Positions 2,089 through 44,381 of a stretch of DNA of 64,000 nt are shown in pieces (position 1 is the stretch's first letter; every line of letters begins with the position of its first letter). Where the stretch lies: positions 1,024,001-1,088,000 of the forward strand of contig CAWCYI010000004.1 of NCBI GenBank assembly GCA_963799845.1, given 5' to 3'. The notes below the pieces were generated by a model that worked only from the letters and a program-made list of their open reading frames with translations, did not search any database and was not told the origin of the DNA. Made by a program: the position numbers and the translations under genes. This DNA is from an uncultured Nitrososphaerota archaeon. GTDB lineage: Archaea > Thermoproteota > Nitrososphaeria > Nitrososphaerales > CADDZS01.

Positions 2089-2114
2089 GACGCTTTCCAA
2101 ATCTGAGAATCGTC
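2089..2114 (+). promoter_or_regulatory. Island box, copy 1 (upstream of coxG cluster)
   Basis: GACGCTTTCCA-AATC-TGAGAATCGTC, then 8 nt, then TTAATA. Confidence 0.75.
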
Positions 2115-2195
2115 TACATGTCTTAATACGCGAACTAGTAAAATAAATCATCGACTTTGTGCAACTTGCTCTGCAAGTGTTCAAAGCTCTGAAGT

Positions 2196-2660
2196 ATGTT
2201 TCATAAGGAGAAGAAACTAAATTTGCATTACGATGGCTCGTTTGAAGTCTCAGCATCTAAAGAGGCATCCTACGCTTTTGCGACAGATCCTGCAAAGGTC
2301 ACTACCATATTCCCTGATGTTCAAGATGTCAGGATAGTCGATTCGGAAACCTTCGAGTTGAAAACGAAAATAGGAATTTCTTTCATAAAAGGGATCATGA
2401 ACGTCAAGGGAAGTATTGCAGAAAAGATTCCATCCAAATTTGTAAAGCTGAAAGCAAAGGCAAATGGGTTGGGAAGCTCGATTGATTTGGAAAGTGGCTT
2501 TTCGATGGAAGATGGAAAAAATGGCGGAACTCTCGTAAAGTGGACTGCAGATGCCATAGTGGGCGGTCTAATTGCGCGGGTGGGTTCTAGACTAATCGAT
2601 TCTGCGGCGCAGAAGTACATCGAACAGATAATTACTTCGCTAAAACAAAAGCTCTCTTAG
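2196..2660 (+). CDS. coxG: CoxG-like SRPBCC protein
   Basis: Typical CoxG pattern (F.TDP......PD, GG.IA.VGSRLIDSAA), upstream of a CoxL-like gene. Confidence 0.8.
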   Translation: MFHKEKKLNLHYDGSFEVSASKEASYAFATDPAKVTTIFPDVQDVRIVDSETFELKTKIGISFIKGIMNVKGSIAEKIPSKFVKLKAKANGLGSSIDLESGFSMEDGKNGGTLVKWTADAIVGGLIARVGSRLIDSAAQKYIEQIITSLKQKLS

Positions 2661-2675
2661 CATCTGGAGTGACAT

Positions 2676-3641
2676 GTGATTTTGATAATTGATGTATTTA
2701 ACCACTTTTACCCGAAGGAATACCTGGACGCACTTTCCAAACCGCTGCCCGAGCAAGTAGTCTGGATTTCTTCAACAATGAGAGGAATCAACGACCTGGA
2801 GTATCGATTGACCCAGATGGACAGGTTCGGAGTTGACATGCAGGTTTTATCTCTTCCCATGCCAACGCTTGATGACCTTTCGAATATTCCAGTGCACGAA
2901 TTCGAAAGGATAACAAAGACTGCAAGCGATGGCATCGCGAGGATCGCCGAGCAATCGCAGGGACGTTTCAAGGGAATAGCCACTGTTTCTCTTCTCGACG
3001 TCGGAAAGGCGATCGACGAGGTTGAAAGGGTTGTGAAAGATCTCGGTCTGCTTGGAGTCCAAATCCTTTCGAATGTGAGAGGGAAACCTCTTGACCTGCA
3101 AGAGTTCGAGCTGTTCTATTCCAAGATCAGTCAGCTGGGTTGCGGCTTGTGGATTCATCCTACTTTCATGAGAAAAATATACGACTGGATGAACGACGAA
3201 TACAACATGAACATGATGATGGGCTGGGGCATAGATACGTCCCTTGCAATGTTTCGCATTTTCAGGGGAGGAGTACTAGAAAGGCATTCCGATCTAAAAA
3301 TCATACCGCACCACATGGGTACCCTGATTCCGCTCATGGCCGGGCGAATCAACGGTTTCGTAATGGGACAGGGAAAGAACGGCCTTCCTCCTTCTCCGCT
3401 CAAGAAGACCCCGATGGAGTACATGAAAATGTTCTACGTCGATACTGCCGAAGGGATGTGGAAGCCAGCCATGGATCTTTCTCACGATTTCTTTGGTTCT
3501 TCCCACATGCTTTTTGGCACCGACTATCCCTGGGGTGATACACCCAAAATCATCGAGAACATCGGGTCACTCAATATTCCGGAAGAGGAGAAGAAAATGA
3601 TATTGGGCGAGAACGCGGTTAAGCTCTTGGGGATCAGGTAA
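2676..3641 (+). CDS. Amidohydrolase_2 family (ACMSD-like decarboxylase/hydrolase)
   Basis: DVFNH, WIHP, HHMG, LFGTDYP and ILGENA motifs. Confidence 0.85.
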   Translation: MILIIDVFNHFYPKEYLDALSKPLPEQVVWISSTMRGINDLEYRLTQMDRFGVDMQVLSLPMPTLDDLSNIPVHEFERITKTASDGIARIAEQSQGRFKGIATVSLLDVGKAIDEVERVVKDLGLLGVQILSNVRGKPLDLQEFELFYSKISQLGCGLWIHPTFMRKIYDWMNDEYNMNMMMGWGIDTSLAMFRIFRGGVLERHSDLKIIPHHMGTLIPLMAGRINGFVMGQGKNGLPPSPLKKTPMEYMKMFYVDTAEGMWKPAMDLSHDFFGSSHMLFGTDYPWGDTPKIIENIGSLNIPEEEKKMILGENAVKLLGIR

Positions 3642-3677
3642 GGAAGAGATGATTCGGCGAAAAGGGGTAAATCCATC

Positions 3678-6195
3678 ATGATGACTACAGTTCTGCGACA
3701 AGAGGAAAAGGAACAACCCAAGGGTAGAGTAGAAGATCCGAGACTTCTCACGGGCAAGGGACGCTTTGTTGATGATCTTAATGCTCAAAACCAGGCATAC
3801 ATGGGCCTCGTCCTCAGTCCATTTGCGCATGCTAAGATCAAGTCTATCGATCTTTCGAAGGTTCGCTCTTCGCCCGAGTTCATTGCATCGCTTACCGGGG
3901 AGGATCTGTTGAAGGAGGGCGTGCACCCTGTAGCACAAAATCCGTGGCCTCCGCAGAAGCATGCGAAACGGTACCACCTAGCGGTAGACAAGGTGAGGTT
4001 TGCTGGCGAACCGGTTGCGGCGATACTTGTGAAGAACAAGAGTTCCGTTGAGGATCTTATCGATCTGGTGGAAGTGGAGTACGAGCAGCTGCCGGTAATT
4101 ACTACAATCGAAGAGTCGAAGGAAAAAAAGGCACTGCTTTACGACGACTGGAAGGATAATCTTTCTCAGACAAATAAAGAAAAGAAGGGCGATGCAGCTA
4201 AAGCAATCTCATCGGCTTCTTACGTGGTCAACGCAAGATTGGGAATAAAGAGGCAGGAGGGCGCCCCGATCGAAACGCATGCCGTCCTCGTATCTTATGA
4301 CGAAGGGAAAGATATGTACGAAGTTTATTCTACAGTTCAGTCCGTGCACGGCCTCCAGGGTCAGCTGGCTTCCGAGCTTGGGACTCCAAAGAAAAAATTT
4401 CATGTTAAAGTGATGGATGTAGGAGGTGGATTTGGGAGCAAGGGAGGTCCGTCCTATCCCTGGCCTCTGCTTGCGTGCCTGCTTGCAAAAAGAACGGGCT
4501 TACCAGTCAAGTGGACTGCGAGCAGGACGGAGGAGTTTCTCGAAGCAGCAGCCGGAAGAGACGAGTATTGCGATGTGACCCTTGCTTGCGACCAAGACGG
4601 AAGGATGGTCGCTTTGCAGGCAAGCGTGGAGTGTGATGTCGGTGTATCCGGCACGCAGACCCATATGCCGTCCTTGACGATGTGGACGATGCCGGGACCG
4701 TACAACATACCCAATTTAGATACTCAAGGTAGCAGCCTACGTGACGAATAAGATGCCGATAGGGCCGGTCAGGGGAGCTGGAGCACCCGAGGGATGCTAC
4801 TTTATCGAACGGGTCATAGAAATAATGGCGAAGAAAATTGGGCTTGATCCTATAGAATTTAGGCGCCGCAACCTGGAAAAGCCAAGAAAGCCAGGTGAAG
4901 AAGATTACCAAGTTCTACTGGATACTCTAGTCAAATCTTCAAATTATGACGCTCTTTTGCAGTGGAGGCTCGGCCTGCTGTCCAAATTCAGACAGGAAGG
5001 TTCCGCTGCTTCAAAGGTTTTGGGAGGAATAGGGATTTCGGTACGCGGCAGCAGTGAATCGGAAGATGAGGAAGAGGATTGGGGCGGCGAGGGAGAGGGG
5101 TTCCAGGGCGGGGGTGACGAAGATAGAACTGCATCGTGGCAGAGCTCGGGGAATTCTAGTGGGTCAGCAAGCAATGCAGAAGCGAAACCAGGATCTTCAT
5201 CTTGGCAAAGGGGTGATAACAACGGCGATTCCTCTGAACAATGGAAATCTGGAACCGATGATGACGATGGTGGTGGTTTTTCCTTCATGACCGAGTCAGC
5301 CAAGGTCGTATTGGACTCCAATGGAGATGTGACCGTGTACACCGGCTCGTCGCCCCATGGACAGGGGGAAGAAACAACGTTTGCTCAGCTTGCCTCAGAT
5401 GAATTAGACGTCCCTCTCGAAAAGGTTCACGTCGTTTGGGGCGACACCTTATTGATTCCTTTCGGAATCGGAACATTCGGTAGCCGCTCAGCAGCTACTG
5501 GTGGAAGTGCAGTAGTTGATGCCACACGTAAGCTGAAATCGCACCTTCTCGAAAAGGCGTCCAAGGTTCTTGGGGTCGATGCGAAATTACTTGGGATACG
5601 AAATGGGACATTTGTGAATCTTTCAAATCCAAACACACCGCTATCGACTTTAGGGCAGACTCTCCAAAAGCTCGGAATGAATGAGATTTCGGCTGATTCG
5701 AAGTTTACTTTGAGCGCAATGAGTTATTCTAGCGGAGTTCATCTGTGTGTGGTAACTCTGGACGTCGAAACAGGTAAGGTGAAGGTCGAAAAGTATCTAG
5801 TCGTCGAGGACTGCGGACGAATGATAAACGAATCCATAGTTGAAGGGCAAATTCATGGCGGTGTGGTTCATGGGATTGGCGGGGCACTGCTTGAGCAACT
5901 GGCATACGACGAATCTGGGAACCTCTTAACTTCCACTTTCATGGACTACAGCATTCCAACATCTGTGGACAGCCCAGATGTCGAAATCTTCCACAGAACA
6001 ACTCCATCAACTGTTACACTCGACGGTGTCAAGGGCGTCGGAGAAAGCGGTACGATTGGTTCTTACGGGGCAGTCGTGAATGCTTTGAACGATGCTCTCT
6101 CGCAGGTTGAAAAGAGCAAAGAAATCAATGTTGCGCCTATAGTGCCTGATATCATTTATTCCGCTGCCCTAAATAACAAAGAGCATCACTTTTGA
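3678..6195 (+). CDS. Xanthine dehydrogenase/CoxL-family molybdopterin-binding large subunit, one frameshift
   Basis: RVEDPRLLTGKG, DVGGGFGSK, VRGAG, PHGQG, GSRS, GQIHGG and KGVGESG motifs. ORFs 3678-4751 and 4741-6195 join if one base near 4720 is removed (NLDLKVAAYVTNKMP). Confidence 0.9.
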
Positions 6196-6914
6196 ATAAG
6201 AATGTGCTGAAGCTTATCGAGAAAAGACAGTCTACAAGGATTCCCTTTAATTCTCGTCGACAAGTGGATAAAAGAGATCTCAAACAGATTATCGAAGCAG
6301 CGCGATGGTCACCGACGGCTCATAACATGCAGAACTTTGAAATTGTCGTGGTGGATGATACTAAGATCTTGAAAGCAATTGGGAACATCAAGTCTCAGAT
6401 TTCGGAGGATTTTCTTCGAGAGAACTATCAACAGCTCTCGTTCTCGAAGAAAGAGTTGCTCAGTAAGAAAGTGGGAATTCTCGGTTCCGGTTTTCCTCCT
6501 TCGTGGCGAGATCCAACAAAGCTGGACGCGGTCGCTAAAGAGAGTCCGCCAAGGCCTTTGAGCCAAACGATTCAGGGCAGCCCACTGCTGTTGGTAGTTG
6601 TCTATGATCCTCGTAAGAGGGCCCCCGCATCTAAAGGAGATTTCTTGGGTATTTTGAGCCTCGGCTGCGCAATGGAGAACATGTGGCTCATGGCCCAGTC
6701 TTTGGGGATAGGTTTTCAGGTAATGAGCATCTTCAGCAGTGTGGCCGTTGAGAAAGAAGTGAAGCGAGTTCTAAATATTCCTGGGCACATGAAGATTGCA
6801 TATGCCATTCGCTTGGGATATGCCCAAGGCAAGTCGACAGAATATCTTAGAGTACGCCGGGATCTGGAAACGTTAGCTCACCACAATCAGTTTGGAAATC
6901 TGGGTCTAGGATGA
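6192..6914 (+). CDS. Nitroreductase family protein
   Basis: KRQSTR, AARWSPTAHNMQ and ENMWLMAQSLGIG motifs. Confidence 0.9.
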   Translation: MNKNVLKLIEKRQSTRIPFNSRRQVDKRDLKQIIEAARWSPTAHNMQNFEIVVVDDTKILKAIGNIKSQISEDFLRENYQQLSFSKKELLSKKVGILGSGFPPSWRDPTKLDAVAKESPPRPLSQTIQGSPLLLVVVYDPRKRAPASKGDFLGILSLGCAMENMWLMAQSLGIGFQVMSIFSSVAVEKEVKRVLNIPGHMKIAYAIRLGYAQGKSTEYLRVRRDLETLAHHNQFGNLGLG

Positions 6915-6939: not shown

Positions 6940-6965
6940 TCTTCTTCTCGGATTTGATAATCGTG
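6940..6965 (+). promoter_or_regulatory. Island box, copy 2 (upstream of USP and ABC exporter)
   Basis: TCTTCTTCTCG-GATT-TGATAATCGTG, then 8 nt, then TTAAGTA. Confidence 0.7.
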
Positions 6966-7013: not shown

Positions 7014-7499
7014 TTGGCAGAGAAAGAAAGTTCGAATTCCGATCTATTTCATTTATCGAAGATTCTAGTTCCAACTGATGGCTCCGCAAACGCTAGCCGG
7101 GCTGTGAATGGTGGGATAGATCTCTCAAAAAAGTACGGTTCCGAACTTGTCGTTCTGTGCGTAATACCTTCTCCAACTCTTCTTGTAGAGGCCTCCGTTG
7201 GTCTAGGGATGGCGCCTGGGGGACTGGATTCCTATTACAAGCAGCAAGAAATGAGGGCCAATTATTTCATTGATGAAGCCGTGACCCTTGCCAAGACACA
7301 AGGCATCAAAGTGAGGAGTGAAGTGTCTCGTGCCGACAAGTCGATAGTTGGGGAAATAATTGAGATATCCATTCATGAGAAAATTGACTTGATAGTTATA
7401 GGCACGCGGGGCCTAGGTGGGTTTAGGAAACTGCTTCTAGGCAGCGTTTCAAGCGGCGTTGTAACTAATGCTCAGTGTAATGTTTTGGTCGTCAGATAA
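7014..7499 (+). CDS. Universal stress protein (UspA family)
   Basis: ILVPTDGS and DLIVIGTRGLGGFRKLLLGSVS motifs. Confidence 0.95.
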   Translation: MAEKESSNSDLFHLSKILVPTDGSANASRAVNGGIDLSKKYGSELVVLCVIPSPTLLVEASVGLGMAPGGLDSYYKQQEMRANYFIDEAVTLAKTQGIKVRSEVSRADKSIVGEIIEISIHEKIDLIVIGTRGLGGFRKLLLGSVSSGVVTNAQCNVLVVR

Positions 7500-7517: not shown

Positions 7518-8564
7518 ATGTCACAACAAAAATCATTGGAGCTATACCAAATAACGACATCCAAGGAAATTCTGAACCTCCAAAAACTGACGAAGAGTTT
7601 TGATGACAAGACAAATGTCGTCGATGATGTTTCGTTCACTGTATCGGAGGGTGAGATTTTTGGCTTTCTCGGCCCCAACGGTGCGGGAAAAAGTACCACG
7701 ATCAACATGCTGACAACGATTCTTCGTCCGACATCGGGAGACGCAACAATATGTGGTTATGATATAATCAAAGATCAAACCGCGGTGAGGAGAAGCATCG
7801 GCGTTGTTCCTCAAGAATCGACAGCTGATGAGGATTTAACTGGTCTTGAAAACGTGTTACTCTGCGCTGATTTTTATGGAATCCCAAGGAAAGTCTCAAG
7901 GCCACGTGCCTGGGAACTTCTCGAACTAGTAGAACTCTCCAAAGATGCGAAAAGAAAAGTCAGCACCTATTCCGGCGGCATGCGAAGGAGGCTTGAGTTA
8001 GCTTCAGGTCTGATAAATCGGCCTAAGCTACTGTTTCTCGACGAGCCGACCCTCGGTCTTGATGTTCAGACAAGAGCAGCAGTCTGGGAATACATACGCT
8101 TACTCAAGGCGGAATTTCACATGACTCTCTTTATGACCACCCACTATCTCGACGAGGCTGACAACCTTTGCGATCGAATAGCGTTGATAGATCACGGAAA
8201 GATTCTGACAATCGGTTCACCTGACGAGCTCAAGGAAAGCCTTGGCGGGGACATAATTGAAGTCGAAGTGCAAGATGGAACAGCCGATCTCTCAGAATCA
8301 ATACGGCGGGTTGAACACGTAGTTGATGTTAGAAAGACAAATTCCGACTACAGGATCAAGACAGAACTCGGAGAAGAGACAGCTCCAGCAGTTATGGAAG
8401 CACTGAGGTTAGCCGGTGCAAAGGTTGTTAGGATTTCAATTGCCAAGCCATCTCTCGATCAGGTGTATCTGGAATACACAGGAAAGTCCATCAGAGAAGA
8501 GCACGCTGATAGTAGCTCTCAGATCCCGAGACACGGAAGAATGTCGATGGGAATGCGAAGATAG
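7518..8564 (+). CDS. ABC-2/DrrA-type exporter ATP-binding subunit
   Basis: GPNGAGKST, YSGGMRRRL, LFLDEPT, TTHY. Confidence 0.95.
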   Translation: MSQQKSLELYQITTSKEILNLQKLTKSFDDKTNVVDDVSFTVSEGEIFGFLGPNGAGKSTTINMLTTILRPTSGDATICGYDIIKDQTAVRRSIGVVPQESTADEDLTGLENVLLCADFYGIPRKVSRPRAWELLELVELSKDAKRKVSTYSGGMRRRLELASGLINRPKLLFLDEPTLGLDVQTRAAVWEYIRLLKAEFHMTLFMTTHYLDEADNLCDRIALIDHGKILTIGSPDELKESLGGDIIEVEVQDGTADLSESIRRVEHVVDVRKTNSDYRIKTELGEETAPAVMEALRLAGAKVVRISIAKPSLDQVYLEYTGKSIREEHADSSSQIPRHGRMSMGMRR

Positions 8565-8581
8565 ATGGAGGTTGGATAGAT

Positions 8582-9556
8582 GTGACAGAATCAGTAACAA
8601 CAAGCAACAAGAAAGATCTAGCCAAACAAGAATTGAGTGAAGTCCCGACGTTGGAACGAACGAGCCAACACATGTCGGCATTCGAGCAAGAGACCGCCCT
8701 CAACCAGAGCTCGCTTCATGGCTTGTGGGCCCTTACAAACAGAGAGCTAAAGAAATGGTACAAGGCCCCGATAATACTGATCCTCTCTCTAATTCAGCCC
8801 GTCATCTGGCTCGGATTATTTGGCAAAGCGATGAACTTCGGAGCGATCTTCACCGGTAGCTCGTTCAACATACCTGGGCTTAACATCCCGAAAAGTGTGC
8901 TCGACACGCTTTCAAGCCAGATTATGCAGAACACGTTCGGTACAAGTGATTATTTCTCGTTTCTTGCAGTTGGCATGTTATCTTTCATTTCACTCTTCAT
9001 GGCCATGCAGAGCGGCATGTCCGTAGTTTGGGACCGGCGGCTGGGCTTCCTGAACAAGGAATTAAGCACGCCGCTTGCACGAGGTGCTTTTCCCATTGGT
9101 AAGGTCTTCTCTTCAATCCTGAGAGGACTCACTCAAGCGGCTACCGTGCTCATCATAGCGATATTGTTGGGGCTCGATGTCTCTCACATCACGGTCGTTG
9201 CAATACTTGGCACTTTTTCCGGGATCTTCCTAATGGTGATGGGCTTTTCTTCATTGTTTGTGATGCTAGCAGTTCGCTCCAGCAATCAGGACACCCAGAT
9301 GATGATAGTAAATCTGTTGAACCTTCCCCTGCTTTTTGCGAGCAATGCTATGTTTCCAGCAAAATTCATGCCGAGCTGGCTTCAGCCTGTGGTTCAGGCA
9401 AATCCGGTCAGCTACGCGACTGATATTTCTCGTCAGCTTCTTCTCGGTTCTACAGGCATGGCAAGTCTGGGTTTTGACTTTCTATATCTGGGAGCGTTCG
9501 CCGTGGCGATGCTGATACTTGGAACATACATATCATGGAGATTCCTTTCGAAGTAA
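8582..9556 (+). CDS. ABC-2/DrrB-type exporter permease
   Basis: Multi-TM protein with WDRRLGFL, LLFASNA and NPVSY patterns, following the ATPase. Confidence 0.9.
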   Translation: MTESVTTSNKKDLAKQELSEVPTLERTSQHMSAFEQETALNQSSLHGLWALTNRELKKWYKAPIILILSLIQPVIWLGLFGKAMNFGAIFTGSSFNIPGLNIPKSVLDTLSSQIMQNTFGTSDYFSFLAVGMLSFISLFMAMQSGMSVVWDRRLGFLNKELSTPLARGAFPIGKVFSSILRGLTQAATVLIIAILLGLDVSHITVVAILGTFSGIFLMVMGFSSLFVMLAVRSSNQDTQMMIVNLLNLPLLFASNAMFPAKFMPSWLQPVVQANPVSYATDISRQLLLGSTGMASLGFDFLYLGAFAVAMLILGTYISWRFLSK

Positions 9557-9658: not shown

Positions 9659-10438
9659 TTACTCTATTATTCTTCTCAGCGCCATCGAAGCAAGCGCGAT
9701 AAATGCGAAAGTCGAGATGAGGAGTACACCAATATCCACTGGAAGATTCGAATAATTTCCAGTCAAAAGCATGGCACGCATGGCGTCAACCACATAGCTA
9801 AGTGGGTTGAACTTTGATACATACTGAAGCCAAGTCGGCATTATGGAAGTTGGATAGATTGCATTGCTTGCGAAGAAAAGTGGCATGGTAATTGCCTGCC
9901 CAATCCCCATCATTCGGTCACGAGTCTTGAAGAACGAGGCGAGCAGCATGGAAAGGCTCGAAAAGCACATTGCAAATAATATGATTACCACGAACACACC
10001 TACAACATCAAACACATCGAACCGGAGGTTCACTCCGATTATCAATGCGAGGGCGAATATTACAACTGCCTGAAACACTCCTCTGATGCTTGCCGCTAGG
10101 GCTTTCCCGATTACGATTGAAGATATACGTGAAGGCGTTGAAAGAAGTTTCGTTAGTAGTCCCATATCCCTCTCCCAGACTATGGTTATGCCGTAGAATA
10201 TTGCCACGAACAGGACAGACTGCGCAAGCACTCCTGGAGTTAGATACTGAAGATACGTGTACCCCGGAGGTGCAAGTCCGTGAACCGCATTGAAGACTTC
10301 TCCGAAGATAAGGAGCCAAAGGAGCGGCTGTATTGTTCGTATCCAGAGCTCGGTGGAATCATGTTTGATTTTCCTTGCCTCCATCTTTGCGATTGTGAGC
10401 GAATCTTCGACTGACTCTACTGCTGCGCTCATAACCAC
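9659..10438 (-). CDS. ABC-2 exporter permease (second system)
   Basis: WERDMG, PLFFASNA and NPLSY patterns. Confidence 0.9.
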   Translation of the reverse strand: MVMSAAVESVEDSLTIAKMEARKIKHDSTELWIRTIQPLLWLLIFGEVFNAVHGLAPPGYTYLQYLTPGVLAQSVLFVAIFYGITIVWERDMGLLTKLLSTPSRISSIVIGKALAASIRGVFQAVVIFALALIIGVNLRFDVFDVVGVFVVIILFAMCFSSLSMLLASFFKTRDRMMGIGQAITMPLFFASNAIYPTSIMPTWLQYVSKFNPLSYVVDAMRAMLLTGNYSNLPVDIGVLLISTFAFIALASMALRRIIE

Positions 10439-31943: not shown

Positions 31944-31952
31944 ACTACCTGA

Positions 31953-34158: not shown

Positions 34159-34166
34159 CCCATTCT

Positions 34167-35198: not shown

Positions 35199-35222
35199 AA
35201 TACACCCCACACAGGCATCCGA

Positions 35223-36488
35223 TTAGGCGTACTCGGCCGCAAAAGTTGTGAGGGCTTTTTTGAATGCCTCCATCGGCGCCTCAGCGATCCCGGTACCTAT
35301 TATCCCATGGCCGCCGTCCTTGTGAGCAATTCCAGTATCAACTCTTGGCGGGGAATTGAGCTCTACTACTTTGCGAATGTCAATCCCGACTGGGACGCCG
35401 ACAAAATCCATGTAGGGAATTCTGAATAGTGGGTCTTCGGCAAGAGAGACTTTTTGCATCGCTCGTGTGTGTTGGACTGCCTCGTCAAGCCCACCTCCGA
35501 AAAGTCTCGCTTGGGAGGGAGATGCGGGTAACGCGGTTCCTCCGAACCCTCTGGATTCCGAGATCGCGCTATCGCCTATATCTGGAGCTGCGTCAGCTGC
35601 CGTGAAACCGGGGAATAGAAAACCTTTGATCTCTCCGGCCGGACCGGTAAACCATTCGTCACCGAGGGCGCTTACCTTGATCCCGAAATCAACACCATTT
35701 CTTGCCATCGCGGTCACAACCGTACTGTACTTTATCCCTTTGGCCGAGTCCATCATCACCTTGCAAGCGCCCATCATCAAGTTGCCGCAGTACCAGCGAC
35801 CACCATTTCCCATGAAGTAGTCGCCGACCTCTCCCAAAGTCTCCTTGGGAAAGCCAGTCCTAACAATGTGGGGAAGAATCCAGTTCATGAGAACGCCACG
35901 ACAGGCTTCGAAAGAACCGTGTAATTCGTCGCCCATGGTAAGCCCCTTGGAAAGCAATTCTTTGATATTGAATCCACCTGCGTGCTTGATGGTCGCCGCG
36001 AGAACAGGAGCCATCGTCTCCTTGACAAACTCAACTTCCTTGATTGCCCGCTCATATTTGTCGGCAAACGATGTTAGATCTGTCTGCATCCAGTCGGTTG
36101 CAGTGTTACCGTGCACCTTGTCTTTGAGAACCAGAACCGGACTCGATGCTGATGTCACGCCGCACATACCGCTTACATTTCCGTAATTGTGATTGGGTTC
36201 AATTCTGACCTCGCCCGTCCTAGCGAGCTTCTCCGCACGTCGCGCAGTATCGGCGAGGCCTTCCGCCCTAATTGCGTTGATAATAGCGATCTTTTGAACT
36301 TTGATCATTCTGTCCCATTCGATTGGCGGCCCGGCGTGTGTAATCAGGTCGCTCTTGTATCCTGATATTGCTTTAATCGCTGGTTTCAGGTCAACCAAAA
36401 CCGCTTCAGATTCAAGTATTCTGGCAACAGCTTTTCCGTTAGCTTCATCGATCTGGTCTTTCAGCTCACTACTCAAATTAGCTAGCAC
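35223..36488 (-). CDS. DUF1116 protein (YlbE/AllG/YahG-like)
   Basis: HAGPPI, MGDELH, MARNGVDFGI, PDIGDSAISE, DTGIAHK. Confidence 0.92.
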   Translation of the reverse strand: MLANLSSELKDQIDEANGKAVARILESEAVLVDLKPAIKAISGYKSDLITHAGPPIEWDRMIKVQKIAIINAIRAEGLADTARRAEKLARTGEVRIEPNHNYGNVSGMCGVTSASSPVLVLKDKVHGNTATDWMQTDLTSFADKYERAIKEVEFVKETMAPVLAATIKHAGGFNIKELLSKGLTMGDELHGSFEACRGVLMNWILPHIVRTGFPKETLGEVGDYFMGNGGRWYCGNLMMGACKVMMDSAKGIKYSTVVTAMARNGVDFGIKVSALGDEWFTGPAGEIKGFLFPGFTAADAAPDIGDSAISESRGFGGTALPASPSQARLFGGGLDEAVQHTRAMQKVSLAEDPLFRIPYMDFVGVPVGIDIRKVVELNSPPRVDTGIAHKDGGHGIIGTGIAEAPMEAFKKALTTFAAEYA

Positions 36489-36555
36489 TTCTATTTTTCA
36501 GCAACATTCTTAGAATAGGCTCTAGTTTTCGACGTGTAGACAATTTAAGTACGGG

Positions 36556-36581
36556 GACGATCTTCAGATCTGAGAACGTCA
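36556..36581 (-). promoter_or_regulatory. Island box, copy 11 (DUF1116 operon)
   Basis: + strand GACGATCTTCA-GATC-TGAGAACGTCA; TTAAAT 7 nt further on the minus strand. Confidence 0.8.
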
Positions 36582-36611
36582 AACAAGCCGCTCAAGCTAG
36601 AAGACTATTGT

Positions 36612-36637
36612 GTTGATTCTCAAGTATGAGAATCGTC
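36612..36637 (+). promoter_or_regulatory. Island box, copy 12 (carbamate kinase)
   Basis: GTTGATTCTCA-AGTA-TGAGAATCGTC, then 8 nt, then TTATAT. Confidence 0.85.
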
Positions 36638-36726
36638 ATGTCGGATTATATGTTGCAATGAACAAAAATCCTCTCTCTGGGATTTGGTATCCGGCCTTTT
36701 AGATTTTAGATGTTCCATGGCAAGTC

Positions 36727-37734
36727 GTGAATGACAAAATTTCCTTGAATGAAGAGGAGAGGGATAAGATATTGGGAAGATATGCGAATGCCAAGAAGAA
36801 AATTTTAGTCGCCCTGGGCGGAAACGCCCTCATAACGCATGGAGAATCAGGCATAATTGAACAAGAGGAAAATGCCAAGGCTGCTGTCAAGCATCTGGTT
36901 AAACTTCTTGAAGAGGGTAATAAATTGGTGATAACCCATGGTAACGGACCTCAAGTTGGAGACATCCTCCTAAGGAATGAAATTGCGAAGGATACAGTTC
37001 CGGCCATGCCACTCGACGTATGTGGTGCCGAAAGCCAAGGGATGATCGGTTACGTACTCCAGCAATCTCTCTACAATGAATTAAGAAGGAAGGGCAAGAA
37101 TACTCCGGTCGCTACGATTCTCACGCAATCAATAGTCGACAAGGCTGATCCGGCGTTCAAGAAGCCCACAAAACCAATTGGTCCATTTTATACGAAAATC
37201 GAATCTTCAAAGCTGTCACGAAAAAAGGGATGGAAAATGATCAACGACAGTGGTCGGGGTTATCGACGCGTCGTACCTTCCCCGCGCCCGATTGCGATTC
37301 CGGAGTTTCCGATAATTAAGGAATTGTTTGATCGTAACTACATCATAATTCAATCTGGAGGCGGAGGCATTCCAGTTGTGCGTAAGCAGAATGGGACGCT
37401 GATTGGCGTGGAGGCTGTTGTCGACAAAGATCTTTGCGCGTCCTTGCTTGCTTCTCTTCTCAAGACTGATGTATTGTTAATCCTGACCGACGTTGACAAA
37501 GTTAGGCTGAACTACGGCAGACCGGACCAAAGATCTCTTGACAGAATGACAGCGGACGAATGCAAGAAATATCTTGCGGAGGGGCAATTCCCTGCAGGAA
37601 GCATGGGCCCTAAAATAGAAGCAGCGATGAATTTTGTTAAATCTGGAAAAGAAAAGACTGCGATAATTACGTCGTTAGAGCTTGCTGAGACAGCATTGAA
37701 AGGCGAGACCGGCACGAGAATTGTAAATTCGTAA
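36727..37734 (+). CDS. arcC: Carbamate kinase
   Basis: ALGGNA, THGNGPQVG, PTKPIGPFY, RRVVPSP, GGGGIPV, GSMGPK. Confidence 0.97.
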   Translation: MNDKISLNEEERDKILGRYANAKKKILVALGGNALITHGESGIIEQEENAKAAVKHLVKLLEEGNKLVITHGNGPQVGDILLRNEIAKDTVPAMPLDVCGAESQGMIGYVLQQSLYNELRRKGKNTPVATILTQSIVDKADPAFKKPTKPIGPFYTKIESSKLSRKKGWKMINDSGRGYRRVVPSPRPIAIPEFPIIKELFDRNYIIIQSGGGGIPVVRKQNGTLIGVEAVVDKDLCASLLASLLKTDVLLILTDVDKVRLNYGRPDQRSLDRMTADECKKYLAEGQFPAGSMGPKIEAAMNFVKSGKEKTAIITSLELAETALKGETGTRIVNS

Positions 37735-37911: not shown

Positions 37912-37937
37912 TACAATTCTCAATTTTGAAGATCGTG
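37912..37937 (+). promoter_or_regulatory. Island box, copy 13
   Basis: TACAATTCTCA-ATTT-TGAAGATCGTG; TATAT 9 nt further. Confidence 0.7.
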
Positions 37938-37991: not shown

Positions 37992-38216
37992 ATGTCAACA
38001 GTAATGAAAGAGACAGTCGAGGAAGAGCGTCCGGTTTCGTTGTCACATGTGAGGCAGCAAATACTGACCTATGGTGACGAAATACACGCGTTTCTGGAAC
38101 ATGTTCACGCAGATGTAGAGAACTATAAGTTCACCGTGGAAAAACGTGCAGATGGCGTAGTAGTTGAGATCAACTTTAAGGCCTTGATCAAAACGAAGCC
38201 GGTTCTGAAGCCATAG
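37992..38216 (+). CDS. Small hypothetical protein
   Basis: 74-aa ATG ORF with protein-like composition behind a boxed promoter. Confidence 0.7.
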   Translation: MSTVMKETVEEERPVSLSHVRQQILTYGDEIHAFLEHVHADVENYKFTVEKRADGVVVEINFKALIKTKPVLKP

Positions 38217-38791: not shown

Positions 38792-38817
38792 GCTCAATTT
38801 CATTTTTGAGAATCGTC
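38792..38817 (+). promoter_or_regulatory. Island box, copy 14 (no substantial ORF downstream)
   Basis: GCTCAATTTCA-TTTT-TGAGAATCGTC, then 8 nt, then TTTAATA. Confidence 0.8.
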
Positions 38818-38854
38818 TACCCCACTTTAATATTGGCTGTGTGTACTTATTCAT

Positions 38855-39088
38855 TCGTCGTTCGGCCAGGTAAAGGTTGTATTTGGAGACAAGAAAAAGC
38901 ACTGGGTAAGGGCTTAGTGCATGGCGCCTATCTCTGACCGTCCGGGTGAGTATGTAGAAACGGGTTCACCCGAACTTCGGACACTCTCGGACGAGGGCAA
39001 ACCGAGACAGTGGGAATGAAGGAAATCTACGTAGCCGCTGTCAAAGGAAAGCCACATGCGTCCTGAAAGCCGAATGGCATTATTTTTT
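38855..39088 (+). ncRNA. Candidate structured non-coding RNA
   Basis: Boxed promoter upstream; stems at 38899-38920, 38940-38975, 38982-39012 and 39051-39078; T6 tract at 39083-39088. Confidence 0.45.
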
Positions 39089-39745
39089 CCAAGACCAAGC
39101 AAAAGGTTTCTGTTGTTCTGCGGTTTGACTAAGATAAACATCAGGAGTTGTTTCACGAATTGATCCGTGATCAACATCGAGAATGAATATCGTATGGACT
39201 TCGGCATAGGTAATTTGATCTATCGTTACTGCGGGATTTGAATAGTACATATCACAAACGAATTTAGCCATTTGAACTTCCGCAGTGTTTCTGAATCGAG
39301 GAGGCTGTTGGAAGATGCCTGGAACCGGCAGGATATTTGTGACAGTCGTCCCCAAAACGAATCTATTTGCAAACGGACTGTATCTTGCGGTCTTACTGAT
39401 TATTCTTGCATAACAGTATCTTGCAGGATCAAGCGCATGGGAAGGGGGAACAAAACCCGTCTCAATCTCGACTATCATGGTGCTCTCACCCTTCATGCCG
39501 TAGACATCGCAAACCAGATTATCCTTCAATTCGTGCTCGACTTTGACTTCGTAGCCTTCAGAAATCAGTTTGTCCGCGCACAACAGTTCAATTACAGAGT
39601 GATTGATCTTGACAAGGTTCTTCCTATAGAGATCGACGAGGTGCAGCCTCACAGAATCAAGTTTGGCCTTGACTTCTGGGGATCGTCCTATCGAAACTCT
39701 CCTGCACATCTCCACTAGATCATCATCAAATCTCTTTACATTCAA
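39080..39745 (-). CDS. Archaeal hypothetical protein with PD-(D/E)XK-like motif
   Basis: E...GYEVKVEH....VCDVYG......VEIETG spacing resembles the restriction-endonuclease fold. Confidence 0.65.
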   Translation of the reverse strand: MNVKRFDDDLVEMCRRVSIGRSPEVKAKLDSVRLHLVDLYRKNLVKINHSVIELLCADKLISEGYEVKVEHELKDNLVCDVYGMKGESTMIVEIETGFVPPSHALDPARYCYARIISKTARYSPFANRFVLGTTVTNILPVPGIFQQPPRFRNTAEVQMAKFVCDMYYSNPAVTIDQITYAEVHTIFILDVDHGSIRETTPDVYLSQTAEQQKPFAWSWKK

Positions 39746-39833: not shown

Positions 39834-39859
39834 GATGATTATCAAATCGGAGAATCGTA
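39834..39859 (+). promoter_or_regulatory. Island box, copy 15 (unit leading to mgtA)
   Basis: GATGATTATCA-AATC-GGAGAATCGTA, then a T-rich TTTTTAT ~8 nt further. Confidence 0.8.
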
Positions 39860-39920: not shown

Positions 39921-40496
39921 ATGTTGAATGATCAAGAACGATTACAGCACAAGAAGGAAGTAGCAGAGCTGGTGATCAAGGATATCGAACTTCTGGAGGG
40001 TGATGTCCGCAAGGGGATGTTCCCAGCCGAGACAGAACCCGAACAAATAATTGAACTTGTGAAAGCGCTCGCGAGCCTAAGTGGGGGTATAGATGTGGTA
40101 AACCTACAGAAAATCTTAGGCATACATAGTGACGAAATGGAACGATTAGTAAACGCTAGCCAGATCTTGGGCTTCACGAGTATCCACAATGGTCTTATCT
40201 GGTTAAGTGGGGCTGGAACGGAGCTGGGCAATTCTCCGATGAGCAAGAAAAGGCAGCTTATATCAGAAAGGATTTCCTTACTCGAACCTTTTAGGACAGC
40301 GATCGATATTGCGACTAAATCCAAGAGTTTCTCATCAGACAAAGTAGCTGATGTCCTCTCAAAGAAAGACCTCAGATGGGCAGAGGAAGAAGAGCTGAAT
40401 GAGTTACTTGTCCACGACATTCTTGTAGACTGCGCGGTTTTTGCAGGATTGCTTGAGTATGATGGAAGGACTGATATGTTTAGCCTGCGGTCGTGA
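39921..40496 (+). CDS. Stand-alone AAA-associated (ABC ATPase C-terminal, winged-helix-like) domain protein
   Basis: FP......I.ELV..L...GG.D...L, ASQILGF.....G.I.L...G, FAGLLEYD pattern. Confidence 0.6.
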   Translation: MLNDQERLQHKKEVAELVIKDIELLEGDVRKGMFPAETEPEQIIELVKALASLSGGIDVVNLQKILGIHSDEMERLVNASQILGFTSIHNGLIWLSGAGTELGNSPMSKKRQLISERISLLEPFRTAIDIATKSKSFSSDKVADVLSKKDLRWAEEEELNELLVHDILVDCAVFAGLLEYDGRTDMFSLRS

Positions 40497-40571: not shown

Positions 40572-41363
40572 TTGCCTATTCCACTCGTCGAACCATCCGA
40601 GAGACAGGCAGTTCGGAGAATCAAGCGACACATTCACGCCTTGGAGGAAGTCGAGCAGTGCCGAGAAGTGCGAATGTCGTTCACAAGAAAGAAACCGCAT
40701 GTATACGTGCACGTCTGGCTTCGGGGAAACCCTGACTACGAGACTATTCACAGGATCTGCTCAACAATTGAAGTTGTAGTCAGAGTCATTGTCCCAAATG
40801 CAAGGGTAGCAGTGCGTTCAGAACCGAGCGTTGAAGGAACCGAAGAGGCGTGGTATCTCGTCAAGAAAATCGCGGAAGAGGAATCCGGATCTAGGGGCGC
40901 GCACAATATTCATCTAAAGAATGCCGGGGAAACGCTGGGAGTTGATTTTGTTCTTGAAGTGAGCGCGGACATGAACCTAAGACAGGCACATGACGTTTCG
41001 GCTCGGATAGAGAAAAAGATCGTTGCGTCAAATTCTAGAATATCGGAGATAATCATTCACGAAGAGTATGTTTCCGAGCTGATCGCGAGCGAACAATCCG
41101 GTCATGGCACCGAGATAAAATGGTACATTTTCCATGTCGTAATGAGATTTCCTGAAATTAGATTGATTCGGAATCCGACTATTCGACGGGTTGGTGATTT
41201 TTTCCACGTTTCAATCAGAGCAGCATTCAAGACCGGGACTAGTCCAGAGAAAATAAGTGAGGTTACATCAAGACTGGACTCGGCTATCAGAAACGGATAT
41301 CCAGCAATCGAAAAAGTATTCATTGTAACAGACTCGTCATCACGTGCTTCTGATACATTATAG
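40572..41363 (+). CDS. Tandem CDF dimerisation (ZT_dimer-like) domains without membrane domain
   Basis: Three repeats of the pattern HNIHL...VDFVLEV...MNL.QAH.V...IE..I....IIIHEE; no TM segments. Confidence 0.65.
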   Translation: MPIPLVEPSERQAVRRIKRHIHALEEVEQCREVRMSFTRKKPHVYVHVWLRGNPDYETIHRICSTIEVVVRVIVPNARVAVRSEPSVEGTEEAWYLVKKIAEEESGSRGAHNIHLKNAGETLGVDFVLEVSADMNLRQAHDVSARIEKKIVASNSRISEIIIHEEYVSELIASEQSGHGTEIKWYIFHVVMRFPEIRLIRNPTIRRVGDFFHVSIRAAFKTGTSPEKISEVTSRLDSAIRNGYPAIEKVFIVTDSSSRASDTL

Positions 41364-41441: not shown

Positions 41442-43949
41442 GTGTTCCGAGCTGAGGGCACAAGTGAGCAGGGCTTATCAAGCGAGGAAGCGAGGAATCG
41501 TCTTGCCATTTACGGCCCAAACGAACTGCCAAGGGAAAAATTCAGCTGGATAAAAATTCTCATCAATCAATTCACGAATCCAATGTTCGTAATACTCATC
41601 GTTGTGGCCGTCATTTCAGGATTCCTAGGCCAACCGGAACAATCTGCAATCATACTTGTGATCATAGGTCTGAGCGTAGTTCTCGGATTCTACAACGAAT
41701 TTCGTGCCGAGAAACTCGTCGAGGAGCTGAAGGACACTGTTTCAATAAAGGCTGTCGTCACAAGGGACGCCAAGACGAGCGAGCTCGATTCAGCCTTGCT
41801 TGTTCCGGGTGATCTTGTAACAGTGTACATAGGTGATATCGTCCCCGCCGACATGAGAATAATCGACTCGAAGGAATTACAAGTCAACGAGGCCGTACTG
41901 ACCGGTGAGTCGTTTCCCGTAGATAAGAATCCGGAGAGACTTTCAAACGCACCTTCTGCCCTAACTCAGGCCTCAAACTTGCTCTTCATGGGCACTGTCG
42001 TTACAAAAGGGATCGCTCGTGGAATCGTAACTTCTACAGGCAAGAATACCGAATTCGGCTCGATTTCAAAGAGCCTAGCTCGCGCGCACCCGGAAACAGA
42101 GTTCCAAAAAGGCACAAAGCGATATGGGAACCTGTTACTAACTCTCACGTTCTTTCTTGCAATAGGGATCTTTGGTTTCAATGCTTTAGTGGGACACTCG
42201 TTGCTGAACTCTCTTCTGTTTTCACTCGCAGTTGCAATAGGAATCGTGCCCGAGATGATGCCAGGGATAGTGACAATCACACTGTCACGTGGCGCTCACA
42301 AGATGGCGAAAGAGAAGGTCATTGTAAAGAGGCTTGTTTCAATGGAGAACTTGGGAAATATCAACGTGCTATGCACTGACAAGACCGGTACCTTAACAGA
42401 AGGTAAGATTATTCTGGAGAATTCAATAGCTCCTGACGGTACGGCCTATGAGAGACCTGTCACCTTGTCAGTTGTTTGCAGCGCGGCAACCTTCGTTGGA
42501 GAGAAGATCTCTGGCAATCCCATGGATGTAGCGATTCAGGAGTACGCTATCCAAGAAGGTCTACAAAATTTGGCCGCAGATTACCAGAAGGTCAACGAGG
42601 TTCCGTTTGACTATCATAGACGCATGGTGACTGTCATTGCAAACTGCAAAGACGAACTGATCCTGATCACAAAAGGTGCCCCCGAATCAGTGTTGCAAAA
42701 ATGCAAGTATGTAGAGTGGAATAAAGAAAAGACAGAGATTACTCCTGAGCTTACGGAAGAGATGTCCAAGAATTTCAACAATTTTTCAGAGAAAGGTCTG
42801 CGGGTTCTTGCAGTAGCTTGCGGTGAGACGGGAGCAAAAAGAGAGTACAGCAGCGCAGATGAAACAGATCTCACAATGGTGGGTTTTCTTGTCTTTACAG
42901 ATCCTCCAAAATTGAATGCAGGCAGTGCCATCGCAAAACTCAAGGCGCTTGGGGTGGATACCAAGATTTTGACTGGTGACAATGAATTAATTGCAAAGAA
43001 AGTTTGCGAGGATCTGGGTCTCCACATCAACGGAATCGTTACTGGTTCAGACCTGACTCCATTGAGCTGGGTTGAGTTCAAGTCGCGAGCGGAAGAAGCG
43101 ACAATTTTTGCTAGAGTCACCCCAGATCAAAAGCTAGATCTGATCAAGGCACTAAAGGAAAATGGGCATGTTGTGGGTTACATGGGAGACGGCGTAAACG
43201 ATGCTCCTGCCCTCTATGAAGCAGACGCTGGAATATCTGTAGACTCGGCTGTCGATGTCTCGAAATCAGCAGCCGATATAGTTCTTTTGGAGAAGGATCT
43301 AAATGTTCTCGCAAACGGCGTGGAAGAAGGACGAAGGACCTTCGCCAATACAATGAAGTACGTCCTAATGGGTACGAGTTCAAACTTTGGTAACATGTTC
43401 AGCGCATCCGCTGCTTCCGTGTTCCTCCCCTTCCTGCCGATGCTTCCAATGCAGATTCTTTTCATGAACCTGTTATACAATTTCTCAAATCTGACTCTTC
43501 CAACCGACAATGTTGATCCAGAGTACACCAAATGGCCAAGGCGATGGGACATTGGGTTTGTACGGAATTTCACCTTGTTTTTCGGACCGTTTAGCTCGGT
43601 CTACGACTTCTTGACGTTTGGGATAATGCTGTTCATATTTCAAGCGTCAGCCTCGCTTTTCCAAAGCGGATGGTTTGTCGAATCCTTCTGGACGGAGGTA
43701 TTGATCATATTTGTGATCAGAACAAGACGTATTCCGTTTTACAAAAGCCGGCCTGGTAAGTGGCTCACGGTCTTGACGCTGGGTTGCGTGGCGTTCGGTA
43801 CGGTACTACCATTTACAACGCTGGGTAGTTTCTTGGGTTTTGTGCCACTGCCACTTGGCTTCTGGGTACTAAACATACTCATGACTGCCACCTACCTGCT
43901 ACTAGTAGACGCAGGTAAGGTCTTCTTTTACAGGGTGTGCGGATTTTGA
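41442..43949 (+). CDS. mgtA: Mg2+-importing P-type ATPase (type IIIB)
   Basis: TGES, PEMMP, DKTGTLT, KGAPE, TGD, GDGVND, MGTSSNFGNMFS, PFLPMLPMQIL. Confidence 0.93.
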   Translation: MFRAEGTSEQGLSSEEARNRLAIYGPNELPREKFSWIKILINQFTNPMFVILIVVAVISGFLGQPEQSAIILVIIGLSVVLGFYNEFRAEKLVEELKDTVSIKAVVTRDAKTSELDSALLVPGDLVTVYIGDIVPADMRIIDSKELQVNEAVLTGESFPVDKNPERLSNAPSALTQASNLLFMGTVVTKGIARGIVTSTGKNTEFGSISKSLARAHPETEFQKGTKRYGNLLLTLTFFLAIGIFGFNALVGHSLLNSLLFSLAVAIGIVPEMMPGIVTITLSRGAHKMAKEKVIVKRLVSMENLGNINVLCTDKTGTLTEGKIILENSIAPDGTAYERPVTLSVVCSAATFVGEKISGNPMDVAIQEYAIQEGLQNLAADYQKVNEVPFDYHRRMVTVIANCKDELILITKGAPESVLQKCKYVEWNKEKTEITPELTEEMSKNFNNFSEKGLRVLAVACGETGAKREYSSADETDLTMVGFLVFTDPPKLNAGSAIAKLKALGVDTKILTGDNELIAKKVCEDLGLHINGIVTGSDLTPLSWVEFKSRAEEATIFARVTPDQKLDLIKALKENGHVVGYMGDGVNDAPALYEADAGISVDSAVDVSKSAADIVLLEKDLNVLANGVEEGRRTFANTMKYVLMGTSSNFGNMFSASAASVFLPFLPMLPMQILFMNLLYNFSNLTLPTDNVDPEYTKWPRRWDIGFVRNFTLFFGPFSSVYDFLTFGIMLFIFQASASLFQSGWFVESFWTEVLIIFVIRTRRIPFYKSRPGKWLTVLTLGCVAFGTVLPFTTLGSFLGFVPLPLGFWVLNILMTATYLLLVDAGKVFFYRVCGF

Positions 43950-43969
43950 AGGGAGCTAGTTGAGAGGGA

Positions 43970-44263
43970 ATGGTTTACGCGGATCTGTTTGGCTGGTGGA
44001 TCGGCACAATCAGCTGGAGTATCGCCTTTCCAATCGTGGTGAGCATTTACTTGCATCGGCGTAGAATTCGGTCATCAACGGCCCAAGTGAGAAAGAAGGT
44101 CCAGTGGGTAAGAGACTTTACGTTTGTATGGTTTCTATTGGGTCTTCTTATTTTCTACATAATTACAGTAAGTCAAGGGTCGTCTTTAGAGTTCGGGATT
44201 GGGAATATCGCCTTCGAGTTGTTGCTCATCACATACGCTTTCAAAAACAGACAGAAAAATTAG
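43970..44263 (+). CDS. Small 3-TM membrane protein
   Basis: 97-aa hydrophobic ORF 20 nt after mgtA. Confidence 0.65.
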   Translation: MVYADLFGWWIGTISWSIAFPIVVSIYLHRRRIRSSTAQVRKKVQWVRDFTFVWFLLGLLIFYIITVSQGSSLEFGIGNIAFELLLITYAFKNRQKN

Positions 44264-44355
44264 TCCTCAGAGATGAAGTACAGGATATTCGCCATCGTAA
44301 TGACAAACACTGATAGACACGCTCTAAGTTGAATCAAAGGTTGACTTCAAAAGTC

Positions 44356-44381
44356 GAGCGTTATCATTGTTGAGAATCGTA
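44356..44381 (+). promoter_or_regulatory. Island box, copy 16 (last clear copy)
   Basis: GAGCGTTATCA-TTGT-TGAGAATCGTA, then 8 nt, then TTAAAA. Confidence 0.8.

Follow-up and report, generated by a model that had tools for sequence, protein, structure and literature searches.

A recurrent palindromic box upstream of TATA elements marks a predicted genome-wide regulon in an uncultured Nitrososphaerota archaeon

Among archaeal activators, TrmBL1 of Pyrococcus activates when bound upstream of the B recognition element (BRE) and TATA box and represses when bound downstream, and Ptr2 and TFB-RF1 recruit TBP and TFB, according to the parts of PMC4706686 that deal with these factors. We describe here a palindromic box lying at a comparable place, present sixteen times in a 64,000-nucleotide (nt) stretch of DNA from an uncultured Nitrososphaerota archaeon (NCBI GenBank assembly GCA_963799845.1, contig CAWCYI010000004.1, positions 1,024,001 to 1,088,000); this whole stretch is referred to as the window. 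The host assembly (G000 below, in which the window is C4:1024001-1088000) comprises 4.6 Mb in 9 contigs and is 86.7% complete, with a contamination estimate of 4.9%; sampled relatives mostly have 0.8-3.7 Mb, and one genome of the phylum reaches 4.3 Mb. The small-subunit rRNA fragment of G000 is archaeal. Searches for AmoA and McrA found neither in this 86.7% complete assembly, whereas AmoA was found in three complete genomes of the same order, and on this basis we read the host as a non-ammonia-oxidising member of an order that also contains ammonia-oxidising archaea. To our knowledge gene regulation in Thaumarchaeota is almost unknown, and we know of no cultured member of these non-ammonia-oxidising lineages. 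Gene calls used throughout are crude open reading frame (ORF) calls, and several genes in the assembly appear as two ORFs.

Sequence, placement and number of the boxes

All sixteen boxes that an earlier note on this stretch had listed are present where it placed them, eight on each strand, and in every one the better-conserved half is turned towards the downstream unit. Aligned facing their genes they read TT[C/A/T]TCA-N4-TGA[G/T/A][A/G]ATCGT[C/G/A]: in the proximal half the G-A of TGA and the ATCGT are invariant (16/16) and the T of TGA is kept in 15/16, while in the distal half TT.TCA hardly varies (T 15/16, T 16/16, C 16/16, A 15/16). A weight matrix trained on these boxes was run over the whole of G000 with the reversed genome as control and a main cut-off of at least 14 bits, giving 98 matches (89 distinct places) vs 2 reversed, and 82 vs 0 at 16 bits or more. 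Since the window boxes had served as the training set, a second matrix was built from 58 non-window sites only, as an independent test; it scored all 16 window boxes at 24.6-31.3 bits and found 105 matches vs 2 reversed at 16 bits or more. The excess over the reversed genome, together with the recovery of the window boxes by the outside-only matrix, thus establishes that the motif is real, non-random and far beyond chance. The literal 26-mer consensus with at most three mismatches gave 5 matches vs 0.01 expected.

Genome-wide, the conserved unit is aTT[A/C]TCA-N4-TGA[G/T/A][A/G]ATCGT[C/G]. The best 60 sites share a symmetric 7-4-7 core, extended by CGT[C/G] and then a T towards the promoter but not on the other side; the outer GACGAT of the distal arm, which the earlier note had written into its consensus, is not conserved across them. 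Its invariant 4-nt spacer is borne out: among 182 genomic TGA.[AG]ATCGT half-sites, TCA stands at spacing 4 in 36 and at each other spacing from 0 to 8 in 1-7. Two nearly symmetric arms held at this spacing are consistent with a dimeric factor. A literature search on archaea and Thaumarchaeota aimed at the box, with regulatory-site databases and paper supplements outside its scope, returned no description of it, nor did searches on archaeal dormancy-regulon genes and on a lineage name, in line with the earlier remark that the motif was not a recognised archaeal operator.

A TATA-like hexamer begins 7-10 nt after every one of the 16 window boxes, as had been claimed; it is of TTTAAA/TTAAAT type and usually lies 7-9 nt downstream. 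Promoter context was further assessed for the 89 boxes against 5000 random positions of the genome. TATA-like elements occurred at +6 to +18 for 42 of the 89 boxes vs 2.3% of random positions, and the pattern located a TATA element in 28 of the 60 best sites, starting 6-10 nt past the box (mostly 7-8). The roughly 60 strong sites all lie upstream of TATA, none of them over TATA or a predicted transcription start site (TSS). An ORF of at least 60 amino acids (aa) starts 20-135 nt downstream of 67 of the 89, a weak measure in that 48% of random positions qualify too. The claim that every copy is intergenic survives in part: the boxes at 14348 and 33156 overlap the longest ORF call, with an in-frame start 38 and 48 nt past the box, and genome-wide 22 of the 89 lie within an open frame of at least 150 codons, vs 76% of random positions. 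From box end to start codon the median is 50 nt, a distance that would fit short or absent leaders at the predicted transcription starts. For thaumarchaeal amo genes, TATA boxes 23-24 nt before the ATG suggested leaderless transcripts in the relevant part of PMC3379541, which concerns amo promoters only. Taken together, position, fixed distance and orientation support the box as a promoter-associated operator of archaeal layout, upstream of BRE/TATA.

The same scan does away with the notion of a self-contained regulon island of about 42 kb. Seventy-three of the 89 places lie outside the window, one of them 3.25 kb to the left of its start, with smaller clusters at C4:305-337 kb, C4:1770-1774 kb and C6:475-482 kb. 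Within the window nothing reached 12 bits past 44.4 kb, where the earlier note too had seen no copy, and the window cluster is the densest, with 16 boxes in 42 kb vs a genome mean of about one per 52 kb. We regard the window as the densest cluster of a predicted genome-wide regulon of about 90 promoters.

Genes behind the boxes

The sixteen boxes of the window and the units that follow them are these, in window coordinates:

2089-2114, plus strand: box 1 (29.0 bits), before CoxG (2196-2660), an amidohydrolase (2676-3641), a split xanthine-dehydrogenase-type molybdenum-cofactor (Moco) subunit (3678-6195) and a nitroreductase (6192-6914)
6940-6965, plus strand: box 2 (27.3 bits), before a universal stress protein (USP; 7014-7499) and an ABC-2 transporter (7518-9556)
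11462-11487, minus strand: box 3 (27.7 bits), before an ATP-binding cassette (ABC) ATPase (10442-11416) and an ABC-2 permease (9659-10438)
13403-13428, minus strand: box 4, before a stand-alone receiver-like protein (12841-13344, start 58 nt past the box) and a nicotinate/quinolinate-type phosphoribosyltransferase (PRTase; 11556-12797)
14348-14373, minus strand: box 5 (35.9 bits, the genome's best), before a 4xCBS protein (13539-14309)
16994-17019, minus strand: box 6, before a 138-aa membrane-like ORF (16525-16941), then PolX (14464-16197)
19177-19202, minus strand: box 7, before a DUF498 protein (18752-19099), a dienelactone-hydrolase-type protein (18050-18709) and a split PRTase (17361-18081)
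23131-23156, minus strand: box 8, before a CBS pair (22635-23102), a ribonucleotide reductase (RNR) with ATP-cone in two ORFs (20483-22581) and a PGA_cap protein (19296-20279)
23342-23367, plus strand: box 9, divergent from box 8, before DnaK/Hsp70 (23405-25246)
33156-33181, minus strand: box 10, before a Bmp/PnrA-type binding protein (31953-33107), an ABC ATPase (30344-31849), AllH (29339-29737) and an FdrA-like CoA-ligase protein (27777-29375)
36556-36581, minus strand: box 11, before AllG (35223-36488) and two permeases (33214-35210)
36612-36637, plus strand: box 12, divergent from box 11, before a carbamate-kinase-type amino-acid kinase (36727-37734)
37912-37937, plus strand: box 13, before a 74-aa ORF (37992-38216) with no family match
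38792-38817, plus strand: box 14 (29.9 bits), with a TATA box and neither an ORF of at least 50 aa nor an Rfam match behind it
39834-39859, plus strand: box 15, before an AAA_assoc_C protein (39921-40496), a ZT_dimer protein (40572-41363) and a type-II P-type ATPase (41442-43949)
44356-44381, plus strand: box 16, with a 53-aa ORF behind it; FolP begins only at 44962

Each of the two divergent promoters (23131/23342 and 36556/36612) has one box for each side, as the earlier note had it. Its statement that a transcription unit follows every copy is not borne out for boxes 13, 14 and 16, which stand before no convincing gene. In the interval 38792-39080, what box 14 drives may be a small protein, a decayed gene or a non-coding RNA; a 221-aa ORF on the opposite strand nearby (39080-39745) has no family match. 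A flavodoxin remnant considered behind box 16 was dropped for want of tblastn support. Scans of the window matched no Rfam family and found no tRNA.

Elsewhere in G000, the first ORF behind 52 boxes was taken (37 of the 52 scanned singly, all 52 tallied as a set). These targets include further USP and CBS proteins, flavodoxins, a hemerythrin-like protein, a radical-SAM protein, an F420H2-dependent quinone-reductase-like protein, a fumarate-reductase-type flavoprotein, dehydrogenases, hydrolases, a cupredoxin, beta-helix proteins, an amino-acid permease, two Lrp/AsnC regulators and one small winged helix-turn-helix (wHTH) protein; many of the 52 have no family. From the gene families we read the regulon as a stress regulon of stasis or low-oxygen type.

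In relatives the exact core pattern, TCANNNNTGADRATCGT, was searched with its reversed form as control (0-1 matches). It occurs 36 times in G000, 0-27 times in the other six genomes of the genus (58-87% complete; 2-27 in five of the six), 13-35 times in each of five genomes of a second genus of the family, once in a third genus (G008, 94% complete), 11 times in G028 of another family, and 0-3 times in the remaining 27 sampled genomes of the order (G001 adds only one row to the counts). None of 300 further genomes of the phylum had more than 5 matches. By these counts the box is abundant in two genera of the host family and in one other family. As in the window, copies may be grouped: contig C65 of G007 carries 13 exact-pattern sites, 12 of them within 12-89 kb, and contig C140 of G011 carries 7. 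Recurrent exact matches in ammonia oxidisers were rejected as operators: in the four genomes looked at they fall within a conserved gene, in the coding sequence for a 250-aa protein that by eye we take to be ribosomal protein L3, and they are in our view chance matches held by protein constraint.

When box-preceded first ORFs of G000, G007, G011 and G028 were clustered (30 of the 32-35 sites being used for G007 and G011), the recurrent core consisted of USP (10 members) and CBS (7) proteins, and six gene families were common to genome pairs, among them the receiver-like protein, carbamate kinase, a short-chain dehydrogenase/reductase and the wHTH protein. The receiver-like gene is box-preceded in G007 also, and the pair of box and carbamate-kinase-type gene has an orthologous counterpart in G011. 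In G028 (L055-L065) membrane proteins make up most of the targets, together with a multicopper-oxidase-like protein and a wHTH protein anchored in the membrane; regulon content therefore differs between families.

Some features of the window stand apart from the box itself. Four genes are split into two adjacent or overlapping ORFs: a NicO transporter (901-1966), the Moco dehydrogenase subunit (3678-6195), the PRTase (17361-18081) and the RNR (20483-22581), whose halves overlap by 4 nt; assembly frameshift errors, pseudogenes or genuine splits could be the causes. The interval 27777-37734 groups AllG, AllH, the FdrA-like protein, carbamate kinase and the Bmp-type ABC importer, and with the Moco dehydrogenase and amidohydrolase (2676-6195) it looks like an oxamate/purine-catabolism set under the same box. 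FolP, FolB and FolK, of bacterial-type folate synthesis, follow in a row just right of box 16 (44962-46714).

A candidate regulator and competing readings

Only one DNA-binding protein has a gene that keeps a box across lineages. This protein, P0001, is listed here with its paralogue in the window:

304534-304887 of G000 contig C4, minus strand: P0001, 118 aa, an ArsR/Phr-like winged-helix protein, outside the window and 720 kb away
26735-27172 of the window, plus strand: P0001 paralogue (34-36% identity), with a weak HTH_20 match and no box of its own

A gene-facing box lies 61-68 nt before the P0001 start codon in G000, G003, G010, G007 and G028 (weaker in G028, at 14.5 bits), and in G000 TTATTAGA stands seven bases past it. 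Among 15 metagenomic orthologues of at least 64% identity, some of whose loci are near-identical and hence not independent, ten show a box of at least 18.9 bits at 63-66 nt with TTAATA after it, a weak box occupies that place in two more, and the other three lack one. No box preceded any of 65 more distant homologues (45-55% identity). Similar palindromes do appear upstream of homologues of 38-46% identity, namely at two loci of a further Thaumarchaeota metagenome-assembled genome (MAG), in a Methanobacteriota MAG (20.9 bits, 85 nt upstream) and in a Methanomassiliicoccales MAG (15.0 bits), where chance, at the rate of the reversed-genome control, would yield about 0.002 in 9,900 positions. 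Many homologues of 50-54% identity (metagenome loci L237-L298) have another conserved element, GAATAGACTCAAATACGGTAATC-like and about 13 nt before the start, which may be their own operator and which G000 lacks. L004, encoded divergently next to the P0001 gene, matched no Pfam family and no PDB sequence, and its database relatives are Nitrososphaerota hypothetical proteins only.

P0001 scores 26.0 bits against Pfam HTH_20, just below the 27-bit cut-off; a PDB sequence search gave nothing significant (only two matches, E about 0.85), and the names in its family are generic (88 clusters, 'helix-turn-helix domain-containing protein' and alike). Its AlphaFold model (pLDDT 83.8) has the winged-helix fold of ArsR/SmtB-type regulators. 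With this model Foldseek ranked Phr, the Pyrococcus heat-shock regulator (2p4w), first and then PH1932 (2cwe, 1uly), at E 2.5e-4 to 1e-3 and TMq 0.52-0.62; SmtB, HlyU, CzrA, CadC and NolR were hit with a probability of 1.00 and a TMq of about 0.5. Paralogues number at least 4 in G000, one of them at C4:317464-317784, and at least 4-5 each in G006 and G011; because all of them keep the IPxSTxYRR recognition helix (in some with one Cys), they may share site specificity. We consider it roughly an even matter whether P0001, or close paralogues, would be the box binder.

On balance we lean slightly towards a single regulator, probably a homodimer, for which the box would be the operator and which would activate about 90 promoters, with P0001 or its paralogues the likeliest binder. 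The regulator would bind the 18-bp palindrome ATT[A/C]TCA-N4-TGA[N][A/G]AT, dimerisation being suggested by the two nearly symmetric arms at fixed 4-nt spacing, and the CGT[C/G] extension, ending 7-9 nt before TATA, would put the site directly upstream of the BRE position. Because the site lies upstream of TATA, 7-9 nt from it, with the asymmetric extension facing the promoter, a stereospecific contact with initiation factors is suggested; from this fixed, oriented site the regulator would most likely help TFB/TBP to load, as do Ptr2, TFB-RF1 and upstream-bound TrmBL1, and we read the box as an activating site by the positional rule reported for TrmBL1 in the pertinent part of PMC4706686. It would thereby switch on the promoters of USP, CBS, redox-enzyme, nucleotide-salvage and RNR, transporter and DnaK genes. 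The P0001 promoter has the same box-TATA layout, by which the protein would feed back on its own gene and amplify its own synthesis. Of the single dimeric activator proposed earlier for the island, the operator upstream of BRE/TATA and the fit with a dimer are retained and the confinement to the island is given up; activation we infer from box position.

Several observations weigh against this reading, whether in its binder, its sign or its label. A conserved box before the P0001 gene is a mark of regulon membership, not evidence that the product binds the box. G011, 96% complete, has 35 exact boxes but only 35-40%-identical paralogues of P0001, so that either the paralogues recognise the same site or the binder is another protein. 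In G008 a homologue of 58% identity goes with only 1 exact box, and ammonia oxidisers, which lack the box, still encode homologues of 42-47% identity; presence of the P0001 family therefore does not predict the motif. P0001 contains neither Cys nor His, thus offering no obvious sensing site, and lacks the metal or thiol residues of the ArsR/SmtB type. The ArsR/SmtB and Phr fold class consists mostly of repressors. The stress or dormancy label derives from what the families in a heterogeneous gene set are called, and of the 89 genes downstream of boxes about 30 were never annotated or match no family.

Of the alternatives the strongest, which we nonetheless hold to be unlikely, assigns the box to another binder (a wHTH paralogue, a membrane-anchored wHTH protein of the G028 type or an unannotated factor), the 118-aa wHTH gene being a conserved target. 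The boxes of G011 without a close P0001 orthologue speak for it, as do the several paralogues in G000, G006 and G011, which nonetheless all keep the recognition helix and so may share the site. In G028 a box stands directly before the membrane-plus-wHTH gene, whose 38%-identical homologue in G000 sits in the box-rich cluster C6:475-482 kb; that homologue has no box, and we keep this protein as a weak rival. The box-preceded Lrp/AsnC proteins L037 and L052 were rejected as master regulator, since a search at E<=1e-10 found them in none of the box-rich genomes G004, G006, G007, G009, G011 and G028; we count L037 as a target because its G003 orthologue keeps a box. The AAA_assoc_C protein (39921-40496) was rejected likewise, with homologues in box-poor genomes and none found in G028. 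The receiver-like protein at 12841-13344, the only one seen, gave no match to a DNA-binding family. Separately, G000 has twelve paralogues of one Lrp/AsnC regulator (e.g. C6:560446-561111, C8:67382-67864, C6:492137-493175), of which three contain internal stops. Most relatives yielded no member of this family; the expansion is lineage-specific, and two copies are box targets.

Next in order, and also doubtful in our estimation, is the same operator with the opposite sign, in which a bound dimer would abut or cover the BRE and block TFB until stress releases it, a derepression as for ArsR/SmtB and Phr. The nearest folds of P0001 (Phr, PH1932, SmtB/HlyU/CzrA) belong to this mostly repressing class, negative autoregulation is common for such factors, and a box ending only 7-9 nt before TATA would let a wing reach the BRE position. 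Set against this, the roughly 60 strong sites are all upstream of TATA, whereas the archaeal repressors named in the available part of PMC4706686 act over TATA or the TSS, and simple occlusion would not need the strict promoter-facing orientation of the non-palindromic CGT[C/G] arm. We keep activation by an upstream-bound regulator as the preferred sign.

It is improbable that the box works without any separate regulator, with a dedicated TFB/TBP paralogue recognising the TGA.AATCGTC half as an extended promoter element: the fixed distance to TATA and the asymmetry of the arms, the promoter-side extension having no mirror image, would suit such an element, but the distal TT.TCA, set exactly 4 nt away, is conserved nearly to the degree of the proximal arm, which points to a two-fold symmetric binder, and the box ends 7-9 nt from TATA, beyond the BRE position. 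A dispersed MITE-like (miniature inverted-repeat transposable element) repeat, RNA hairpin or terminator is most improbable, since, numerous as the copies are and capable as a 7-bp stem with a 4-nt loop is of forming, their flanks are not conserved, the bases are conserved by identity and not as pairs, position and orientation are fixed relative to TATA and start codon, the box lies upstream of the predicted TSS, and the window scan against Rfam was blank.

Comparison with described systems

In its content, the predicted regulon, whose targets include a class II RNR, resembles one controlled by quite different means. The DosR/DevR regulon of Mycobacterium tuberculosis, in the parts of the sources available to us (PMC12976132 Table 1, PMC7753917), includes nrdZ (class II RNR), Rv0571c (phosphoribosyl transferase), pncB2, Rv0574c, the USPs Rv1996 and Rv2623, ctpF (P-type ATPase), acg and hrp1/Rv2626c. 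Box-driven genes of the window match that partial list in eight categories, by family name only: RNR, dienelactone hydrolase with PRTase, nicotinate-type PRTase, PGA_cap, USP, type-II P-type ATPase, nitroreductase and CBS. This resemblance is a lead and not a result, resting as it does on family names. For acg, Rv0574c, pncB2 and Rv2626c the domain content is presumed. The mycobacterial system differs in having a response regulator, Dev-box sequences unrelated to our box (as given in the portion of PMC7753917 that treats them), and another domain of life and promoter type. Another large USP-rich cluster switched on together is the low-oxygen-activated (lxa) locus of Burkholderia cenocepacia, described in the part of PMC3721108 concerned, which differs in being bacterial.

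The overlap with the mycobacterial dormancy regulon suggests a recurrent survival-gene set, wired to different switches in each lineage. A wider proposal, which we offer as speculation and think unlikely as a whole, would be that in uncultured non-ammonia-oxidising Thaumarchaeota one positively self-regulated 118-aa ArsR/Phr-like activator governs about 90 promoters as a dormancy or low-oxygen programme, contacting the pre-initiation complex from its fixed, oriented place beside the BRE. The core genes (class II RNR, dienelactone hydrolase with PRTase, nicotinate-type PRTase, PGA_cap, USP, CBS, nitroreductase and a Ca-type P-type ATPase) would then be an ancient stasis module that in mycobacteria is under DosR. 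If true, a module common to two domains would have been rewired to unrelated regulators. Independently of that proposal, what is gained is a crisp operator, a target list of about 90 promoters and a candidate regulator, small and soluble, that can be expressed and assayed with oligonucleotides while the organism stays uncultured. With box and TATA in fixed phase, communication between an archaeal factor and TFB/TBP could be studied cleanly here, and the box may be used as an annotation aid, marking true start codons and promoters in these MAGs.

With Phr, PH1932 and the wider ArsR/SmtB/HlyU group, the candidate system shares the best fold matches of P0001, apparent self-regulation and a chaperone, DnaK, among the targets. 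Phr (2p4w) has 198 residues and P0001 118, at an identity of 17% (17-23% over Phr/PH1932), and P0001 thus shows neither Phr homology nor the architecture of about 200 aa in which a long C-terminal part serves dimerisation. Phr is a repressor with its operator over the TSS, whereas the boxes here end 7-9 nt upstream of TATA. ArsR/SmtB homodimers occupy imperfect inverted repeats some 26 bp long, of the 12-2-12 type; the window site spans 26 bp, but the genome-wide core is 7-4-7 with a one-sided extension.

The nearest likeness is to the archaeal upstream activating sites of Ptr2 (Methanocaldococcus) and of TFB-RF1 and TrmBL1 (Pyrococcus), which, in the account that PMC4706686 gives of them in part, are likewise palindromes directly upstream of BRE/TATA where position decides the outcome. 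The predicted system described here differs in a single box per promoter and in a far larger regulon, of about 90 promoters. The TGM of TrmB/TrmBL1 reads TATCAC-N5-GTGATA (same part of PMC4706686) and the box TT[A/C]TCA-N4-TGA.AAT + CGTC, so that half-site and spacing both differ. The fold of P0001 is neither that of Lrp/AsnC proteins, to which Ptr2 belongs, nor that of TrmB; the position of a Ptr2-type site is present without an Lrp/AsnC binder. What is new is thus an undescribed operator and regulon, unusually large and with a sharply defined target set, from an uncultured lineage. Consensus, spacing, the fold or size of the candidate binder, and operator position each depart from a trait that defines the TGM/TrmB, Ptr2/Lrp or Phr systems, and we place the box outside all three, as a system predicted to work in the manner of archaeal upstream activating sites.

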